Below, piece after piece: positions 986 to 32,802 of a stretch of DNA of 32,802 bases. Where the stretch lies: the NCBI GenBank assembly GCA_030600745.1, contig JAUVLL010000002.1, positions 1-32,802 on the forward strand. Direction: 5' to 3'. The notes below the pieces were generated by a model. It had not been told where the DNA came from and ran no database searches. It was given only the letters and a program-made list of their open reading frames with translations. Numbering within the stretch: the first letter of the stretch is position 1; each line of letters begins with the position of its first letter. Both the position numbers and the translations under genes were made by a program. The stretch is from Spirochaetaceae bacterium (GTDB lineage Bacteria; Spirochaetota; Spirochaetia; B11-G9).

Positions 986-2106
986 TTTACTCCATCAATT
1001 ATTTTTAGTGCCTTCTCAAATGCTTCCAGGAGCCTGTCAATATCCTCTATTGTATGTTTAGTAGATATCTATACCCTTATTCGAGCCTTTCCTTTGGGAA
1101 CAACAGGAAATGAGAAAGGAATGACATAGATGCCGTTTTCATAAAGATTTTCTGCAATTTCTACAGCTATATATTCATCATAGAGCATAACAGGGATTAT
1201 TGCTGTATCTCCATTTGGAACATCAAACCCAAGGTCTTTCATTTTTTCCCTGAAATAATCTGATTTCATTTTAAGGTCCAGAGAAAATTTGCCATTACTC
1301 TTTCTTAAAAGAGACAAAGCCTCTATGGAAGCAGCAGCTACTCCAGGAGCAAGGGTATTTGAAAAAAGATAGGGTCGGGATTTCTGCCTTAACATTTCAA
1401 CAATCTCATTTTTTGCACATATGGCCCCCCCTGAGGCTCCCCCCAGGGCTTTACCAAAAGTTGTTGTTATAATATCTACTTTACCCAGCACACCACAGTG
1501 CTCAGCTGATCCTCTACCTGTCTTTCCTATATAACCAGTTGCATGTGAATCATCGACCATGACAAGGGCGTTATATTTTTCTACAAGAGCACATATTTTA
1601 TCTACCGGAGCTATATCACCATCCATTGAAAAAACACCATCTGTGCAGATTATCCTATACCGTGAATCTCTTGTCTCTATAAGCTCTTTTTCAAGATCTT
1701 CCATATCCATATGTTTATAACGAACCCGCTTTGCTTTAGATAGTCGAATTCCATCTATTATAGAGGCGTGATTAAGTTCATCTGAAATAATTGCATCTTC
1801 ACATCCTGTAAAGGACGCTATCTCTTTTTCAAACTGCTTATGTATAGATTGGGTTCCGCATATAAACCTGACAGAAGATAGTCCAAAACCCCATTTCTCA
1901 ATACCATGAGATGCAGCTCTTTTAATTTCTTTTTTATTGGCAAAACCTATCTAGTTATTTGAACAGAAATTAAGTACCTTTTTACCATCTTCTGTCTCAA
2001 TATTACTTCCCTGGGGTGTAGTTAAAACTCTTTCGTTTTTATAGAGTTTCATCTCCTTCAGTTCACTAAGTTTTTCTGTAAGATGATTTATAAAATCACT
2101 ATTCAT
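982..2106 (-). pseudogene. kbl: 2-amino-3-ketobutyrate CoA ligase (glycine C-acetyltransferase) inactivated by two in-frame TAG codons and an in-frame deletion
   Basis: A single frame from ATG 2106 to TGA 982 translates as MNSDFINHLTEKLSELKEMKLYKNERVLTTPQGSNIETEDGKKVLNFCSNN*IGFANKK...VRFICGTQSIHKQFEKEIASFTGCEDAIISDELNHASIIDG...DGVFSMDGD...VDDSHATG...FGKALGG...[29 protein letters not shown]. The TAG codons are at 1951-1953 (the conserved NNYLG Tyr position) and 1069-1071 (the RxQ Gln position). About 23 aa are missing at nt 1798-1803 relative to E. coli Kbl ([32 protein letters not shown]). Confidence 0.8.
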
Positions 2107-2272: not shown

Positions 2273-3517
2273 ATGACTTTTTTAGAAAAATACGCAAATG
2301 TAATTCTTACCAGCCTTAATCTTCAGAAAGGACAAAACCTTTTGGTAAGAACAGAACCAGTGCATTGGAAGTTTGCATCCATTATTGCAGCAGAAGCTTA
2401 TAAAAAGGGAGCCAGATATGTAAGGGTTGATTCAAATGAAAAAGAAAATCAATTACTTTATAAGGCAAGAGTTGAGAATTCTCTGGAAGAGTACCTTGAT
2501 TATGTTCCTACTATAAAAACAGAAACATATAAAATAATGGTTGAAGAAGGCTGGGCATTGATATCTTTAAATGGGACAGAAGATCCTGATCTATTATCCA
2601 CCATTGATCCAAATCGAAATACTATAATTGGCAAAGCAATTGCAGAAGCTGGAAAACCTTTTAGAGAGGCCGTGCAAAATCACCGTATTCAATGGATAGT
2701 TGCTTTTGCTCCCACAGAAATCCTCTCTGGCAAAATAATGGATGTACCTCCGTCCCCACAGGCCTTAGACAAATTGTGGGAAGTTCTTACACCAATCCTG
2801 CATCTGGATGATGAAGATCCCTCTGCAACATGGCGTGAAAGAGGATTAACTTTAAAAAAGAGATCTTCTGTTTTAAATAAATTACAGCTTAAGGAAGTAT
2901 ATTTTAAAGGTCCCGGTACAGATTTAAAGGTTGGATTAAGGGGAAAAGCCAGATGGGAAGGCGGCAGTTCTATTTCTGAAAAAGGTATTGAGTTTTCACC
3001 TAATATTCCAACTGAGGAAGTTTTTACAGCACCTGATTTTCGATTGACAGAGGGTCGGGTACAAATTACAAGACCTGTTCTGGTTCCAACTATTGGTAAA
3101 ATAATAGAAGGCGGATGGCTGGAATTCAAGGCAGGTAAAGTTGTGAATTATGGAGCTAATTCAGGTAAAGATGTACTGGACCAGTATCTTGCAATGGATC
3201 CTGCAGCTGCTTATTTAGGTGAGCTGGCTCTGGTTGACAGTAACTCACCAATCTTTAAATCAGGAAAAACCTTCTACAACATTTTGTTTGACGAAAATGC
3301 ATCCTGCCATATAGCCCTGGGGAGTGCATACCCTGATTGCTATGAAGACGGTGGCAGTATGAGTGAGAAAGATTTACTGGATAATGGTATAAATATTTCC
3401 AACCTGCATACAGACTTTATGATTGGTTCCCCGGATGTGGACGTTACTGGTTTAACCTGGGATGGAAGGAAAGTTGATATAATTATAGATGGTGAGTTTG
3501 TTGGGGAGTTTGCCTGA
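2273..3517 (+). CDS. M29-family aminopeptidase (AmpS/PepS/aminopeptidase T-like)
   Basis: The 414-aa product from ATG 2273 has an AGGAG RBS 5 nt upstream; the TTG at 2240 in the ORF track looks spurious. Family hallmarks present: NIPTEEVFTAP, LGELALVD, FDENASCHIALGSAY, NxSxxHTDFMIG. Confidence 0.8.
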   Translation: MTFLEKYANVILTSLNLQKGQNLLVRTEPVHWKFASIIAAEAYKKGARYVRVDSNEKENQLLYKARVENSLEEYLDYVPTIKTETYKIMVEEGWALISLNGTEDPDLLSTIDPNRNTIIGKAIAEAGKPFREAVQNHRIQWIVAFAPTEILSGKIMDVPPSPQALDKLWEVLTPILHLDDEDPSATWRERGLTLKKRSSVLNKLQLKEVYFKGPGTDLKVGLRGKARWEGGSSISEKGIEFSPNIPTEEVFTAPDFRLTEGRVQITRPVLVPTIGKIIEGGWLEFKAGKVVNYGANSGKDVLDQYLAMDPAAAYLGELALVDSNSPIFKSGKTFYNILFDENASCHIALGSAYPDCYEDGGSMSEKDLLDNGINISNLHTDFMIGSPDVDVTGLTWDGRKVDIIIDGEFVGEFA

Positions 3518-3524
3518 GTTTTAT

Positions 3525-4442
3525 CTATACTCTATTTTCTTCTCTTATTGCGTTTGCAAGCTGGTTAAACCTATCAATGGTATGTTTGTAAAACATCTGC
3601 CAACCATCACATAAGGCACTGAGTATGCCCGATTCTGCATTTGGACCTCTCATTTTCTGGCAGTCTCTGTCCATAGTACACTGAGTGTATATCCCTTTTA
3701 CAAGATAGTTCAGTACAGAATCAAAATGACGGATAGAAACTCTTCCTGAATCTTTCCTGTACCACATATCAAAAATTTTACATAGGAATTCTCCCCACTG
3801 TACTCCCGTAATGGAATAATGGGTCAGTTCTCCTTTGTCATCATATTCCACACATGGTATAAACTGTAGAAAATTAAACCCTTTATCCCTGTAGTATTTA
3901 TACAACTCTCCCGGGCTTTTTACATTATCCGAGTTTACAAGACATAAAATATTGAATTCAACCTTTGCCTGCCGGAGGTGTTCAATACCCTGCATGACCT
4001 TATTGTGGGTGGGGTCACCACTGACAGTAAGGCGGTATTTATTATGAAATTCTTTTGGGCCATCCAGGCTAACTCCAAGTAGAAAATTATGCTTTGCAAA
4101 GAAATCTGCCATTGGTTTATCTATCAACGTAGCGTTTGTTTGAAGTGCATTAGTGATTACTGCATTAGGTGGAGCATGTTTTTTTTGAAAATCCACTGCC
4201 TTTTTAAAAAAACCTAAGCCCAAAATAGTAGGCTCACCTCCCTGCCAGGTGAAACTATATTCAGGCATGGGAATTTTCATATAATCTTTAATCATCTTCT
4301 CCAGAATATTATCAGACATAACAGGTTTATCACCAGGTCTCACATAATCAAGGTGATCAATATAGAAACAGTATTCACAACGTAAGTTACATGAAGCAGA
4401 AGCAGGTTTTATCAGTAGTGAAAATGGTTTAACTCTATTCAT
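3525..4442 (-). CDS. Anaerobic sulfatase-maturating enzyme (radical SAM, AtsB/anSME family) lacking the central SPASM / auxiliary-cluster segment; possibly non-functional
   Basis: The N-terminus FSLLIKPASASCNLRCEYCFY carries the CX3CX2C radical-SAM motif, with QGGEPT and FNILCLV following. It is collinear with C. perfringens anSME (370 aa, from memory) up to CTMDRDC. It then jumps directly to QKMRGPNAESGILSALCDGWQMFYKH, the equivalent of C-RRCRD...LNYYCQSYKEFF. No convincing SD lies upstream of the ATG. Confidence 0.7.
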   Translation of the reverse strand: MNRVKPFSLLIKPASASCNLRCEYCFYIDHLDYVRPGDKPVMSDNILEKMIKDYMKIPMPEYSFTWQGGEPTILGLGFFKKAVDFQKKHAPPNAVITNALQTNATLIDKPMADFFAKHNFLLGVSLDGPKEFHNKYRLTVSGDPTHNKVMQGIEHLRQAKVEFNILCLVNSDNVKSPGELYKYYRDKGFNFLQFIPCVEYDDKGELTHYSITGVQWGEFLCKIFDMWYRKDSGRVSIRHFDSVLNYLVKGIYTQCTMDRDCQKMRGPNAESGILSALCDGWQMFYKHTIDRFNQLANAIREENRV

Positions 4443-4540
4443 ATGGATTTATTGTGATAGTATAATTTGACATTGTCAATCTGCTAAATAATTAACGGCG
4501 AGTTTACAAAAGATTTTTCTTAATCCCTGAATACTCAGAT

Positions 4541-4850
4541 TTAATCATTGTTTTCTGAAACCATACGGAAGGCTTCTATAAGAGTATCAGTATCCTCCAT
4601 AGTATGCTCACTGGAAATTTGAACCCTTATTCTTGCCTTCCCCTTTGGGACAACAGAAAATGAAAAAGGAACTACATATATAACCGGTTGCATGAGAGTC
4701 ATCCACCATAACCATTGCATTATATTTCTCTGCCAGATCACAGATTTTATCGAGCGGTGTAATATCACCATCCATAGAAAATACTCCGTCAGTACAGATT
4801 ATCCTGAACCTGGAACTTTCAGCTTCTTTAAGAGCATTTGACTTGTTTCA
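4541..4850 (-). pseudogene. kbl: Second kbl remnant: a mid-gene segment fused out of frame to the C-terminal segment
   Basis: One frame reads [57 protein letters not shown]. After the junction at about nt 4675-4684 a different frame reads [45 protein letters not shown]. The track ORF 4541..4771 is a chimera of these. It is clearly similar to the first kbl pseudogene at both nucleotide and protein level. Confidence 0.65.
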
Positions 4851-5107: not shown

Positions 5108-6331
5108 TTATTTTTTGAATTTTCTTAAAACATCAAGTGCGTAATCAATATCAGATTCAGTATGATCACCGGCGATCTGGAATCTGATTTCTTCCGATCC
5201 CTTGGGAACTACAGGGTAGTTAAGTCCTGTGGCAATAATACCATTCTCTGTCAAAAATGCAACTATATCTGATGTTAATTGTGTATCTCTAACCATTAGA
5301 GGAACTACCGGATGTTCACCATCAAGTGTTTCATAACCTGCATCCTTCAAACCCTGTCTGAATTTTACCGTTAATTTTCTCAAGTGTTCAAGTATTTTTA
5401 ATCCTTCCGGACTTTCAATAATATCAATTGCTTTTGATGCTGCCGCTGCTTCTGAAACCGTTATTGGATTTGAGTAGATATACATTGGAGAAGTTTCTCT
5501 GAAATATTTCAATATTGCATCAGCAGAAACAACATATCCTCCGTTCACGCCGAAAGCTTTTCCAAGAGTTCCAATTAGAATATCTACTTTTGCTTTTGTA
5601 TATTCCTCTGTTCCTCTGCCTGTTTTACCGAATGCACCGACACCATGGGAATCATCTACAACAGAAATTATACCTTCTTCAAATTCCGAATCGTATTTAT
5701 TACAGATCTCAACGATCTCATCAAGTGGTGCATTGTCCCCTCTCATTGAAAAGATCCCGTCCGTTATAACAAGTAAGCGTTTTGCTTTTCCAATACTTTC
5801 CTTGATCTTTGTCTCAAGATCCTGCATATCATTGTGTTTATAAACTGCTTTTCCTGCTGGACGAGTAATTTTCATCCCGTTAATGATACAATTATGATTA
5901 AGTTCATCACTAACGATAATGGTCTCTTTTGTTGTAAGTGGTACTATAACGCTCATACTTGTAACATAAGCAGATGAAAAGATCATTCCGGCTTCTTTAT
6001 TATGAAAGTCGGCAAGCTTTTTTTCCAATATGGAATGTATATTATATGTTCCGCTAATAAATCGGACGGCACCCGGTCCTACACCGAATTTTCTTGATGC
6101 ATCTTCTTCAGCCTTGATCATATCATCTCTCAAGGACAATCCAAGATAGGAGTTTGAATTCATTTTTAAAAATTCTTTTTTTCCATTACCTTCAATAAAA
6201 TACCTTGGACCTTTATTCCCTTTTGCTCTGATAATATCGGTTATGATCATCTCATCGCCTTTGCTGACATTTCGATCCTTTAGATCACTTACATAGGATC
6301 TCAATACTTTACTTAATTTTTCACTTGACAT
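5108..6331 (-). CDS. kbl: 2-amino-3-ketobutyrate CoA ligase / glycine C-acetyltransferase (PLP, alpha-oxoamine synthase family), intact
   Basis: The 407-aa product has NSNSYLGL, VRFISGT, SDELNHNCIING, ITDGIFSMRGD, VDDSHGVGAFGKTGRG, GTLGKAFG (PLP lysine) and YPVVPKGSEEIRFQ. A GGAGGA RBS is present. It lies 8 nt downstream of the SDR-type tdh. Confidence 0.85.
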   Translation of the reverse strand: MSSEKLSKVLRSYVSDLKDRNVSKGDEMIITDIIRAKGNKGPRYFIEGNGKKEFLKMNSNSYLGLSLRDDMIKAEEDASRKFGVGPGAVRFISGTYNIHSILEKKLADFHNKEAGMIFSSAYVTSMSVIVPLTTKETIIVSDELNHNCIINGMKITRPAGKAVYKHNDMQDLETKIKESIGKAKRLLVITDGIFSMRGDNAPLDEIVEICNKYDSEFEEGIISVVDDSHGVGAFGKTGRGTEEYTKAKVDILIGTLGKAFGVNGGYVVSADAILKYFRETSPMYIYSNPITVSEAAAASKAIDIIESPEGLKILEHLRKLTVKFRQGLKDAGYETLDGEHPVVPLMVRDTQLTSDIVAFLTENGIIATGLNYPVVPKGSEEIRFQIAGDHTESDIDYALDVLRKFKK

Positions 6332-8243: not shown

Positions 8244-9689
8244 CTATTCAACATCAGGCTGATGACCAGCAACTACCCTGTCAATATCCTTTATTATATT
8301 TTCCGGTAAGACCGCCGGATGGTGGTTTTTAAAGATCTCTTTTGCCTCTTCATTCAGTTTCACGGCAAGATCCTTCTTTCCCTCATCTTCCCATGCCTGA
8401 TAACGGTCTCTGTTCAGGAAACGTGGAAACCATAAGGTTTTTCTGAAATGTTCCACTGTATGCTCTTCCATGAGAAAGTTGCTTCCATCCAAAACCCTCT
8501 CCACCACATCAAGAGCAACTGTATTTTCATTGAAATCCAAAGGACGAAGCAAATACTTGACAGAATTGATAATTTCATCTGCAAAAAGCAGTGATTCAAA
8601 AGATGATGTAAGACCTGACTCGAGATAGCCGCAGTCATGAATAATATTGCAACCGTTCAATGTTGCCATGTAAATGGACATTGCGGATTCAAATCCAGCC
8701 TGGGCATCAAGTACTTTTGAATCGGTTGCTCCGGCAATACAGAAAAACGGAAGCTTATAATAATGAGCCATATCTGCCAACCCATGATTAATAACATTCA
8801 ATTCAGGAGCTCCGTACCTGAAAATATTGGTTTTCATATCCATGGCAGTTGCATCACCGCCAAAAATAAATTTTGCACCCTCTTTCTTTTTCTGAAAAAC
8901 AACAAGACCGGCCAGAGACTCGGCTACAGTCTGTACAAGAATTCCCTCAATAGTAACGGGGGCCGATGCCCCCAGCATGGGACTGCCGATATAGACAAAG
9001 GGGACCTCATAATCACAGCAGACCAGCCCCTTGTCCATCCCCATTTCTGTATGAAGGAGGGGTGACACAGGTTCTGTATACAAAATAAGGGAAGGCTTGC
9101 TTTTCAGCTCATTTATCCCTCCCACAGATGCTGCAGCCATCCGGATCATCGTATTCATATCATTTCTTCCATGACCGGTGACAATTATTGGTTTTTCAGT
9201 ATTTTTCAGCATTGCATCGTATTGATGCACAAAATTGCTCCCCTTTGGACTATCATAGGCAATACCAAAGGACATAACAAAATCAATATTCGGAAGTGCA
9301 TCACTGAATACGGCAAGTCTGGCAACATCATCTTTCAAAGAGGCTCGTCTCTCTCCTGTATCAAGATCAATGGTAGTAGGACAGTCAGAACCTGTTCCAT
9401 AATTACAGGATCCCTCCTTAAGTTCCATGGCCAGTTCACCATTCCTGTTAAATACCTCTATTTTTTCGGGAGCTACTTCCAAAGCCTCCCGGACCATTTT
9501 CCGGGGTATCCTTATTCTATCAGGGTTTGAGACATCACACCCGGCATGACCTAATATATCCAGGGCCTCTGCGCTTTGTACTCTGCACCCGATCTCCTCC
9601 ATCATTCTGAGAGCATAGTCATTGACCTGTTGTATCTGTTCATTTGACAGAATCTGGTTACTAATTGGTTTTCCCAGTGATACTGACAT
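8244..9689 (-). CDS. MttB-superfamily (trimethylamine methyltransferase-like) protein, non-pyrrolysine type; probable quaternary-amine:corrinoid methyltransferase
   Basis: An uninterrupted 481-aa ORF with no in-frame TAG, of typical MttB-family length and composition (..NYGTGSDC.., ..YTEPVSPL.., ..GGDATAMDMKT.., ..IHDCGYLESGL..). An AGGAGGG RBS is present. Confidence 0.8.
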   Translation of the reverse strand: MSVSLGKPISNQILSNEQIQQVNDYALRMMEEIGCRVQSAEALDILGHAGCDVSNPDRIRIPRKMVREALEVAPEKIEVFNRNGELAMELKEGSCNYGTGSDCPTTIDLDTGERRASLKDDVARLAVFSDALPNIDFVMSFGIAYDSPKGSNFVHQYDAMLKNTEKPIIVTGHGRNDMNTMIRMAAASVGGINELKSKPSLILYTEPVSPLLHTEMGMDKGLVCCDYEVPFVYIGSPMLGASAPVTIEGILVQTVAESLAGLVVFQKKKEGAKFIFGGDATAMDMKTNIFRYGAPELNVINHGLADMAHYYKLPFFCIAGATDSKVLDAQAGFESAMSIYMATLNGCNIIHDCGYLESGLTSSFESLLFADEIINSVKYLLRPLDFNENTVALDVVERVLDGSNFLMEEHTVEHFRKTLWFPRFLNRDRYQAWEDEGKKDLAVKLNEEAKEIFKNHHPAVLPENIIKDIDRVVAGHQPDVE

Positions 9690-31003: not shown

Positions 31004-31237
31004 ATGGAAAAGAAGAATTTATTATTTATTACTACTGACCAGTGGAGGGCTGAGAGTTTATCCTCTCTGGACCATCCTGTTGTTAAAACTCCGAATCTTG
31101 ATGCACTCGCAGCTGATGGAGTTACATTTAAGAACCATTTTGCACAGTGTATACCATGCGGGCCAAGCAGAGCTTCTATTTATACAGGTATGTATATGCA
31201 GAACCACAGATCAGTGGAAAACGGAACTCCCCTTGAT
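31004..31237 (+). repeat. Direct repeat: 5' 234 nt of sulfatase 1 versus sulfatase 2 (32569-32802)
   Basis: By manual codon alignment 206 of 234 nt are identical. Perfect runs are 31037-31089 (53 nt) and 31179-31237 (59 nt, cut by the window end). Of the 28 mismatches, 24 fall in codons 29-59. Confidence 0.85.
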
Positions 31238-32533
31238 GCCCGGCACACAAATATTGCTCTTGAGTTTAGAAAACTGGGCTATGCTCCCGCACTTGTCGGA
31301 TATACAGATACTACCCAGGATCCCCGCTTATTCTCGCCCAACGATCCGGATCTAAAAACATACGAAGGTATTCTACCGGGCTTTAAATGTCTGGCAATGT
31401 CAAGTGAAGAATTCCCGGAGGACTGGGCTCTGTGGCTGGAAGAGAAGGGGTATCCTGTTCCTGATAATCCCAGGGACCTTTATTACAAAGCTGTCAAGGG
31501 TTACCCCGGGGCAGAAGATCGGGGTATAACCTATGCACCTGCTCCGTATCCAAAAGAAATGAGTGAAACGGCATTTGTAACGTATAATGCTGAAAAATTT
31601 ATCAAGAAATCTGCCGGTAAACCATGGTTTCTCCATATGAGCTATCTAAAACCTCACAGACCTTATCTTGCACCGGAACCATACAATAAAATGTATTCAC
31701 CGGATAATGTTCCGGCCTTTAAACGTGCACCTACCATAGAAGAGGAAGCAAAACAGCATCCACTACTCGAATATAAACTAAAACAGACTTTAAGCAAGGG
31801 ATTTTATTCGAAAGAAATTTATCCCAGGGATGATAAATCCCTAAAGCAGCTGAGAGCTACATACTACGGTCTCATGACAGAAGTGGATGATAATATTGGC
31901 AGGATTGTAGAGCTCCTTAAAAGGATCGGTCAATATGAAAACACAGTAATTATCTTTACAAGTGATCACGGAGCCCAACTTGGTGACCACCATATTATTG
32001 GGCAGGCACCCTATTTTGATCAGACTTTTCGTGTGCCCCTGATCATAAGCATCCCAGATAAAGCAGGAGAAATACAAAAGGACTCAAAAGTGGATGCCTT
32101 TACAGAGAGTATTGATATTTTACCAACTGCTCTCAGTCTTTTCGGGGGAGATATTCCTGTACAGTGTGACGGCCGGTCCCTGCTTCCATTCCTTTATGGC
32201 AATGAACCTGAGAACTTCAGAACCGAAGCACACTGGGAGGTTGATTTCAGGTATGATGAACCAGGCACTGAGTTTGAAAGATCATCCTTAAATGTAATAA
32301 GAGACAACGATTACAAGTATGTTCACTTTGCCGAAATGCCGGATCTTTTATTTGATCTTAAAAATGACCCTGATGAGCTTCATAATCTTGCTGAAGATCT
32401 CTCATACACAAAAGTTATGTTGAAATATGCAAAAAAGTTACTTTCATGGAGAATGGAAAATGATGAGAGAACCCTCGCATATATGCTGGCTGGATCCGAA
32501 GGGATTACTGTTAAGCCTAAAACCTATAAATAA
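31004..32533 (+). CDS. Sulfatase-family hydrolase, Cys-type (formylglycine motif C-G-P-S-R), no signal peptide
   Basis: LLFITTDQWR (metal-binding Asp strand) starts at residue 6. Also present: CIPCGPSRASIYTG, YLKPHRPY, FTSDHG and a DPDELHNL tail. Confidence 0.85.
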   Translation: MEKKNLLFITTDQWRAESLSSLDHPVVKTPNLDALAADGVTFKNHFAQCIPCGPSRASIYTGMYMQNHRSVENGTPLDARHTNIALEFRKLGYAPALVGYTDTTQDPRLFSPNDPDLKTYEGILPGFKCLAMSSEEFPEDWALWLEEKGYPVPDNPRDLYYKAVKGYPGAEDRGITYAPAPYPKEMSETAFVTYNAEKFIKKSAGKPWFLHMSYLKPHRPYLAPEPYNKMYSPDNVPAFKRAPTIEEEAKQHPLLEYKLKQTLSKGFYSKEIYPRDDKSLKQLRATYYGLMTEVDDNIGRIVELLKRIGQYENTVIIFTSDHGAQLGDHHIIGQAPYFDQTFRVPLIISIPDKAGEIQKDSKVDAFTESIDILPTALSLFGGDIPVQCDGRSLLPFLYGNEPENFRTEAHWEVDFRYDEPGTEFERSSLNVIRDNDYKYVHFAEMPDLLFDLKNDPDELHNLAEDLSYTKVMLKYAKKLLSWRMENDERTLAYMLAGSEGITVKPKTYK

Positions 32534-32568: not shown

Positions 32569-32802
32569 ATGAAAAAGAAAAATCTATTATTTATTACTAC
32601 GGACCAGTGGAGGGCTGAGAGTTTATCCTCTCTGGACCATCCTGTTGTTAAAACCCCAAATCTTGATGCTCTGGCGGCTGATGGTGTTCTCTTTGAAAAT
32701 CACTTTACCCAGTGTATTCCAAGCGGCCCGGGCAGGGCCTCACTTTATACAGGTATGTATATGCAGAACCACAGATCAGTGGAAAACGGAACTCCCCTTG
32801 AT
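32569..32802 (+). CDS. Second sulfatase paralogue, Ser-type motif (S-G-P-G-R), truncated by the window end
   Basis: MKKKNLLFITTDQWRAESLSSLDHPVVKTPNLDALAADGVLFENHFTQCIPSGPGRASLYTGMYMQNHRSVENGTPLD. A GGAGG sits 12 nt upstream. It is open at the right edge, so it is absent from the ORF track. Confidence 0.8.
   Translation, partial: MKKKNLLFITTDQWRAESLSSLDHPVVKTPNLDALAADGVLFENHFTQCIPSGPGRASLYTGMYMQNHRSVENGTPLD

Follow-up and report, generated by a model that had tools for sequence, protein, structure and literature searches.

The gene on the reverse strand at 3525..4442 of the window (the whole stretch of 32,802 nt analysed here) is most likely a redundant paralogue of the anaerobic sulfatase-maturating enzyme (anSME) that recently lost its function through a repeat-mediated in-frame deletion, with sulfatase maturation left to an intact gene on contig C32 of the same genome bin. 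An in-frame deletion of 207 nt, bounded by short direct repeats, took away the core of the SPASM domain. The gene and its parts are as follows.

3525..4442, reverse strand: anSME-derived open reading frame with ATG start, 305 aa, radical-SAM core whole, SPASM domain internally deleted.
4368..4391, reverse strand: radical-SAM CX3CX2C motif (C18, C22 and C25), in invariant columns of the homologue alignment.
3609..3680, reverse strand: SPASM remnant with the surviving C255, C261 (equivalent to C261/C330 of the Clostridium perfringens enzyme, anSMEcpe) and C278 (equivalent to C348), from PDB and homologue alignments.
3660..3667, reverse strand: deletion junction, where an 8-nt direct repeat over Asp-Cys codons, GAGACTGC, is kept in a single copy; the 207 nt were lost between 3660 and 3659.
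3534..3611, reverse strand: C-terminal helix, residues 278-303, conserved (AlphaFold2 block pLDDT 96).

Domain content and fold of the 305-aa protein

The 305-aa protein was searched against Pfam, NCBIfam and the PDB. PF04055 (Radical_SAM) was found at 54.4 bits (Pfam cut-off 29.5). The other Pfam match was a sub-threshold Fer4_12, and no match to SPASM (PF13186) was obtained in the Pfam search at E ≤ 1. The best NCBIfam family was TIGR03942 (anaerobic sulfatase maturase), which scored 320.1 bits, under its curated cut-off of 349.45, with the best stretch spanning profile positions 2-256 of 363. When the genome was searched with TIGR03942, the gene scored 311.5 bits, again under the cut-off. 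In phmmer against the PDB, residues 5-262 were matched to residues 2-262 of anSMEcpe (4k36/4k37, E 7e-66), and residues 260-302 were matched to 329-372 in a second, weak stretch. BLASTP against the C32 paralogue gave 73% identity over residues 1-273 (also given as 73% over 1-262) and a second segment in which residues 260-300 were matched to 329-369 at 63% identity (E 1e-15). An internal break in the open reading frame is confirmed, because the TIGR03942 profile, phmmer and BLASTP all show it. An earlier note on this DNA had aligned the protein by hand to the C. perfringens enzyme. That alignment was essentially right (anSMEcpe 2-262, then 329-372), and the observation of SPASM loss drawn from it holds in the profile searches, where the SPASM domain was not found and TIGR03942 fell below its cut-off.

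Descent from anSME was established from the trees and from the closest DNA. The maximum-likelihood tree, built from 48 rows, pairs the window protein with P0126 (100/98) in a clade of five rows (100/100) whose remaining four members are full-length anSMEs. At the DNA level, the gene is 94.5% identical to L019, a 1186-nt metagenome contig that codes for P0126. L010, L015, L016 and L017 were left out of the maximum-likelihood tree; a FastTree run added L010, L015 and G004:C527, and again did not include L016 and L017.

The structure was modelled with AlphaFold2 from 40 sequences, yielding a confident core and a mean pLDDT of 83.4. The pLDDT was below 50 at residues 254-266, and two blocks over 251-270 averaged 44-45. 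In the model, the core is predicted to be tied to the terminal helix by a floppy or disordered linker (254-277) in place of the two-cluster domain. The best Foldseek matches were anSMEcpe chains (4k39_B, E 4.5e-24, TM-score 0.83 on the query). The radical-SAM core, the CX3CX2C motif and the C-terminal helix of anSMEcpe (PDB 4K36-4K39) are all present in the window protein, whereas residues ~263-328 of that enzyme have no equivalent, so that clusters I and II cannot be fully ligated.

The 207-nt deletion and the lost ligands

Measured against both the C32 paralogue and the L019 orthologue, the gap amounts to 69 codons (207 nt) and is in frame, which bears out an earlier estimate of about 69 absent residues. 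In the comparison with the C32 paralogue, the absent residues lie between two Asp-Cys pairs, those of CTMDxDC and of CHGDC. The junction had been placed at nt 3657-3662, close to the position found here (3660/3659, with the retained repeat at 3660-3667). In L019, the missing bases are bounded by the direct repeats ATAGAGACTGC and ATGGAGACTGC, the copies of which lie exactly 207 nt apart. The pair (repeat family D6) matches at 10 of 11 positions, eight of them in one perfect run, and the copies correspond to the Asp-Cys codons of CTMDRDC and CHGDC. Since L019 holds 13 direct-repeat families of such short size, a repeat alone is unremarkable; it is meaningful here because the deletion ends coincide with one repeat pair, not because a repeat exists. 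Deletion ends bounded by a repeat are what replication slippage or microhomology-mediated deletion classically leaves behind, and the 207 nt were probably lost by one of these two routes.

The beta-hairpin/helix region and the CX2CX5CX3C motif lay in the deleted part, which has five cysteines in P0126. Its columns are nearly invariant in an alignment with 39 homologues (38 chosen from 119 listed matches, plus P0126). The auxiliary ligands are given in PMC5491770 as C255, C261, C276 and C330 for cluster I and C317, C320, C326 and C348 for cluster II. The two [4Fe-4S] clusters ligated by these eight cysteines are described as "critical for the enzyme activity" (PMC5491770, PMC5682303). The equivalents of C276, C317, C320 and C326 are lost together with one of the C261/C330 pair, C261 being fused with C330. 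Three of the eight auxiliary ligand cysteines are left (C255, C261 and C278 of the 305-aa protein). The earlier note was right about the loss of cysteines and wrong about their number, which it had put at four: five of the eight ligands are gone. Its statement that neither auxiliary cluster could be fully ligated holds more strongly than claimed for the same reason. Judged by its sequence, the 305-aa product would be unable to hold clusters I and II, and it should not make formylglycine, because both of these critical clusters would be missing.

Full-length and split alleles of the same gene

The 90%-identity cluster of the window protein has seven members. The SPASM region is present in P0126 (379 aa), in P0124 (346 aa, with a later start) and in P0122 and P0127 (269 aa), the last two covering only the C-terminal part of the protein. 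P0123 and P0125 (92 aa) represent the N-terminal part and end in FQKKTCST. The SPASM-deleted form was not found in the cluster members covering the region. The FQKKTCST-stop ending fits a +1 frameshift at one site.

4179..4186, reverse strand: run of eight A (FQKKH in the window protein).

From the protein sequences, the split of P0123 and P0125 would be explained by one extra A in this run. The split alleles P0122/P0127 and P0123/P0125 sit on contigs of 746, 3491 and 4499 nt. Their split may reflect either a homopolymer error or another lesion of the gene, which would have arisen independently in other populations.

Outside the 207 extra bases of L019, 50 of the 915 aligned coding nt differ between L019 and the window gene; at the protein level, P0126 and the window protein differ at 21 of 305 residues (93% amino acid identity outside the gap). 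The same DNA follows the gene downstream in L019 and in the window. L019 differs in carrying the 207-nt SPASM core and in having AAG at the TAG stop of the window gene (1138-1155 against window 3510-3527), its product being five residues longer (KMKIR). The TAG stop lies where most homologues end, and the AAG with its five-residue extension looks like the derived state.

Substitutions were compared between the two alleles. The dN/dS of the window gene against L019 was 0.21 over the whole comparison, with 0.22 in codons 1-250 and 0.20 in the tail; these values do not separate a recent pseudogene from a working gene, and sequence data alone cannot prove relaxed selection. The 21 residue differences were polarised with eight outgroups, which assigned 5 as derived in the window lineage and 11 as derived in the P0126 lineage, with 5 ambiguous. 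There is no surplus of derived substitutions in the window lineage relative to the full-length lineage, and the end branch of the window protein in the tree is 0.023, against 0.053 for P0126. The substitution counts, the short branch and the dN/dS fit a very young lesion.

Start region of the gene

The starts of 27 open reading frames in the window were checked for a Shine-Dalgarno (SD) sequence with a loose pattern that included AAGG. An SD-like match was found at 18 of the 27, and none was found upstream of the anSME ATG. A promoter-like site was found there by consensus scan.

4451..4479, reverse strand: promoter-like TTGACA-17-CACAAT, 10 of 12 consensus matches, ending 8 nt before the ATG.

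Sites of this kind were no more frequent in the region than in shuffles. The same layout (a TTGACA-like hexamer, 17 nt and a hexamer like CACAAT, CACTAT or CATAAT) was seen before the window gene, the C32 gene, G003:C103, G001:C51 and G009:C136, with the second hexamer ending ~8-10 nt before the ATG. The intact copies in L001, L008, L009 and L013 carry this arrangement upstream of anSME. A leaderless or near-leaderless mRNA is thereby suggested as a family trait, and it would explain the missing SD. The earlier remark that no SD is visible is accurate; intact anSME copies are also without one, and the missing SD is no sign of decay because these copies share the SD-less promoter-ATG layout. 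With the promoter-like site, the start codon and the radical-SAM core kept, the shortened gene is probably still expressed and its product still made.

Signs of decay in the surrounding DNA

Two further damaged sequences lie near the gene.

1012-2082, reverse strand: kbl-like (class I/II aminotransferase) pseudogene, with TAG stops at 1951-1953 and 1069-1071 and a 23-residue gap.
4565-4832, reverse strand: kbl-like remnants directly upstream of the anSME gene, pieces of a second kbl-like copy, the rest of which is deleted.

The 23-residue gap of the pseudogene is relative to an intact paralogue at 5108-6331, and at this point the relatives G001, G004 and G005 are longer by about 57-61 bases. 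The remnants at 4565-4832 match the product of the 1069-1710 open reading frame in two segments, residues 10-61 (81% identity) and residues 194-213 (90%). The first 5 kb of the window are consistent with deletion-prone decay. Recent decay of the anSME gene is favoured by the nearby pseudogene and remnant and by the splitting of other cluster members at the A-run. Against decay, the rest of the open reading frame is unbroken, the promoter-like site is kept and dN/dS against the full-length allele is 0.21. That the deletion is in frame has a chance of one in three, but an in-frame deletion also has the look of a selected shortening.

Recoding of TAG was considered, both stops of the kbl-like gene being TAG and an MttB-family gene lying at 8244-9689, and was rejected: the two TAGs stand for unlike residues of the paralogue (Y and Q), the kbl-like gene also has the 23-aa deletion, and the MttB-family open reading frame is full length with no internal stop.

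Short repeats are scattered through five genomes of the genus in dozens of copies (85-100% identity), among them window ~2204-2290 and C32 ~3802-3929. The TTG listed as start of the M29 peptidase open reading frame (2240) falls within the window copy; an ATG at 2273, preceded by AGGAG, is more likely to be the true start of that gene.

Intact anSME on contig C32 and possible clients

The genome bin is 2.97 Mb in 375 contigs and is 87% complete, with an estimated contamination of 1.96%. The whole bin was searched with TIGR03942, yielding six matches, one of them above the cut-off. This was C32:6138-7211 (419.6 bits against 349.45, profile 2-362, stop-free); its 373-aa product retains the CX3CX2C motif together with the full set of eight auxiliary cysteines. 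The first possibility raised in the earlier note, an intact anSME elsewhere in the genome, is supported by this gene of the same bin. The C32 paralogue resembles the window protein in sequence (73% identity over residues 1-262 of the latter, 63% over its tail) and in the promoter-ATG layout; it differs in being 373 aa long and above the TIGR03942 cut-off, the window protein being 305 aa long and below it. The two genes fall in different clades in both trees. The window gene adjoins the M29 peptidase gene, as in G005:C73, and the neighbour of the C32 gene is a large gene that recurs next to the anSME of G002:C94 and of G003:C103. One anSME was found in most of the genus genomes searched, and two were found in G004 and in this bin.

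Two possible clients lie in tandem at the far end of the window.

31004..32533, forward strand: Cys-type (CGPSR) cytoplasmic sulfatase-family hydrolase, possible client, closest to phosphonate monoester hydrolases.
32569..32802, forward strand: tandem paralogue of the Ser type (SGPGR), incomplete at the window end, possible client.

Over 78 residues, the Ser-type copy shares 91% identity with the start of its Cys-type neighbour. The closest matches of both genes were the phosphonate monoester hydrolases 2vqr (E 1.7e-139) and 2w8s (E 2.3e-137), and both are nearer to these than to carbohydrate sulfatases. No obvious signal peptide was seen by eye in either protein. A third gene, of the Cys type (CGPAR), is on C76. 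The earlier note had linked Cys- and Ser-type sulfatases in the window to the anSME gene. Such sulfatase-family genes are indeed there; the link is loose, as they stand ~27 kb away in another gene block. anSMEs are reportedly dual-substrate enzymes (so termed in the title of a 2008 paper by Benjdia), and one intact anSME could plausibly serve all three hydrolases. The modification itself, in which anSME turns a critical cysteine or serine into formylglycine, is described in PMC5682303. Maturation of the Cys- and Ser-type hydrolases would then fall to the C32 paralogue, and the lesion would be tolerated because of this redundancy.

The placing of C32 and C243 in one cell rests on binning, for which the contamination figure and composition are weak tests among congeners. 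If C32 came from a co-binned congener, the loss of function in the window gene would be real and this organism would have no working anSME; its formylglycine-dependent hydrolases would be inactive, or would be matured otherwise, for example by the FGE-like proteins of C155 and C313. This is unlikely. It would agree with the 91-97% DNA identity of parts of C32 to G002, while the M29 gene beside the window anSME is 74% identical to its G002 counterpart, and with the single anSME of most genus genomes; FGE-domain matches also exist in the bin. Parts of the window are, however, 92-95% identical to G002 too, so that the ranges overlap. C32 is typical of the bin in GC content (0.373, the bin mean being 0.379) and in tetranucleotide distance (46th percentile), the contamination estimate is 1.96%, and the gene flanking the C32 anSME occurs once in the bin. 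G004 likewise has two anSME genes. With an intact C32 gene, the earlier suggestion that the sulfatases are inactive is not needed, and it would hold only if C32 were mis-binned.

The search for additional maturation genes also covered the FGE-sulfatase domain (PF03781), which was matched at G000:C155:1279-1905 and at C313:5173-5460. One of these matches sits in a 576-aa open frame, and the host is apparently an anaerobic sediment spirochaete.

Support for the junction in public runs

Public sequencing runs were examined through their Logan contigs. The best-holding run, X1, is a cold-seep metagenome and probably the source of the metagenome-assembled genome (MAG), so that its Logan assembly is a second assembly of probably the same reads. 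An X1 contig of 2033 letters (depth 10.4) covers 3000-4264 with 0 differences and 0 gaps. No alternative form over the junction is listed among the X1 Logan contigs, which drop rare variants. In the Logan contigs, no run besides X1 spans the junction, X2 and X3 being without coverage there. A 153-letter contig of run X4 (depth 3) covers 3512-3664 and ends at 3664, within the deletion repeat. It comes from a near-identical strain with 2 differences in 153 nt, one of which is the L019-like state at 3625. Its end could mark an assembly-graph branch between deleted and full-length forms, or could be chance.

An assembly artefact or a minority allele, with the true gene full length and the deleted form due to a mis-join or a rare subpopulation, is quite unlikely. 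The fragmentation of the MAG into hundreds of contigs, the X4 contig end and the occurrence of the deleted form in one sample only would be in keeping with it. It is opposed by the independent X1 assembly, which bridges the junction without difference and so speaks against the assembly deletion that the earlier note wished to exclude. The direct repeat of 8-11 nt is also far below assembler word size, and by this reasoning the junction word must exist in the reads.

Distribution of the short form

Homologues were collected at E ≤ 1e-20, yielding 4561 matches. Among the best 120 of these, PF13186 was present in 119 of 119 other homologues, and the only SPASM-less entry was the window's own protein. 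The shorter homologues in this set (297-333 aa) are cut at the N terminus and keep the SPASM domain. Genes of relatives were sought in 40 related genomes and in the window's own bin. At ≥64% identity, 10 of 10 were in open frames of 370-396 aa, with the query matched in two pieces.

These counts bear on whether the short form is a minimal or neofunctionalised variant, that is, a SPASM-less enzyme that matures sulfatases without auxiliary clusters or has another role (uncoupled SAM cleavage, or client binding as a regulator or dominant-negative partner). Such a variant is very unlikely. In its favour are the kept reading frame, the undamaged radical-SAM motif, core fold and C-terminal helix, the kept promoter-like site, the absence of a derived-substitution surplus and the dN/dS of 0.21. 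The form is unique among the best 120 of the 4561 homologues, the 10 genes of relatives and the members of its own cluster that cover the region, which speaks against the earlier proposal of a minimal variant. The 94.5%-identical full-length allele, differing by a repeat-bounded deletion, also counters that proposal and makes the short form too young for a test by selection. Five of the eight ligands of clusters described as critical (PMC5682303) are gone, and the junction region is predicted to be disordered.

It is likewise highly improbable that the deletion allele, expressed from its leaderless promoter, is kept since its SPASM-less core is useful, for example by binding client peptides or SAM and so modulating maturation by the C32 paralogue. 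If it were useful, it would be a natural test of what anSME can do without auxiliary clusters.

Twitch domains are shortened SPASM domains with one auxiliary cluster, as in BtrN and MoaA; they keep the beta-hairpin and cysteines enough for one cluster, and are old, conserved architectures. Like these enzymes, the window protein joins a radical-SAM core to an incomplete SPASM domain. It differs from them in that the hairpin is deleted, three cysteines are left and the form is a singleton. The term Twitch is taken from PMC10452713.

Implications

If the 305-aa protein were active, the view that both auxiliary clusters are needed would be overturned; no finding here suggests activity. On the preferred reading of a recent loss of function, the sulfatase-activating capacity of the organism would rest on another gene, and a pipeline call of "radical SAM protein" or "anaerobic sulfatase maturase" at this locus would very probably describe a dead gene. 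The full-length, repeat-bounded deletion and apparent frameshift alleles of one gene are all present in public data, and they make a clean, dated case of paralogue loss in an uncultured deep-sea (cold-seep) spirochaete. The kind of finding is ordinary; its value is as a caution for annotation and as a snapshot of paralogue loss.
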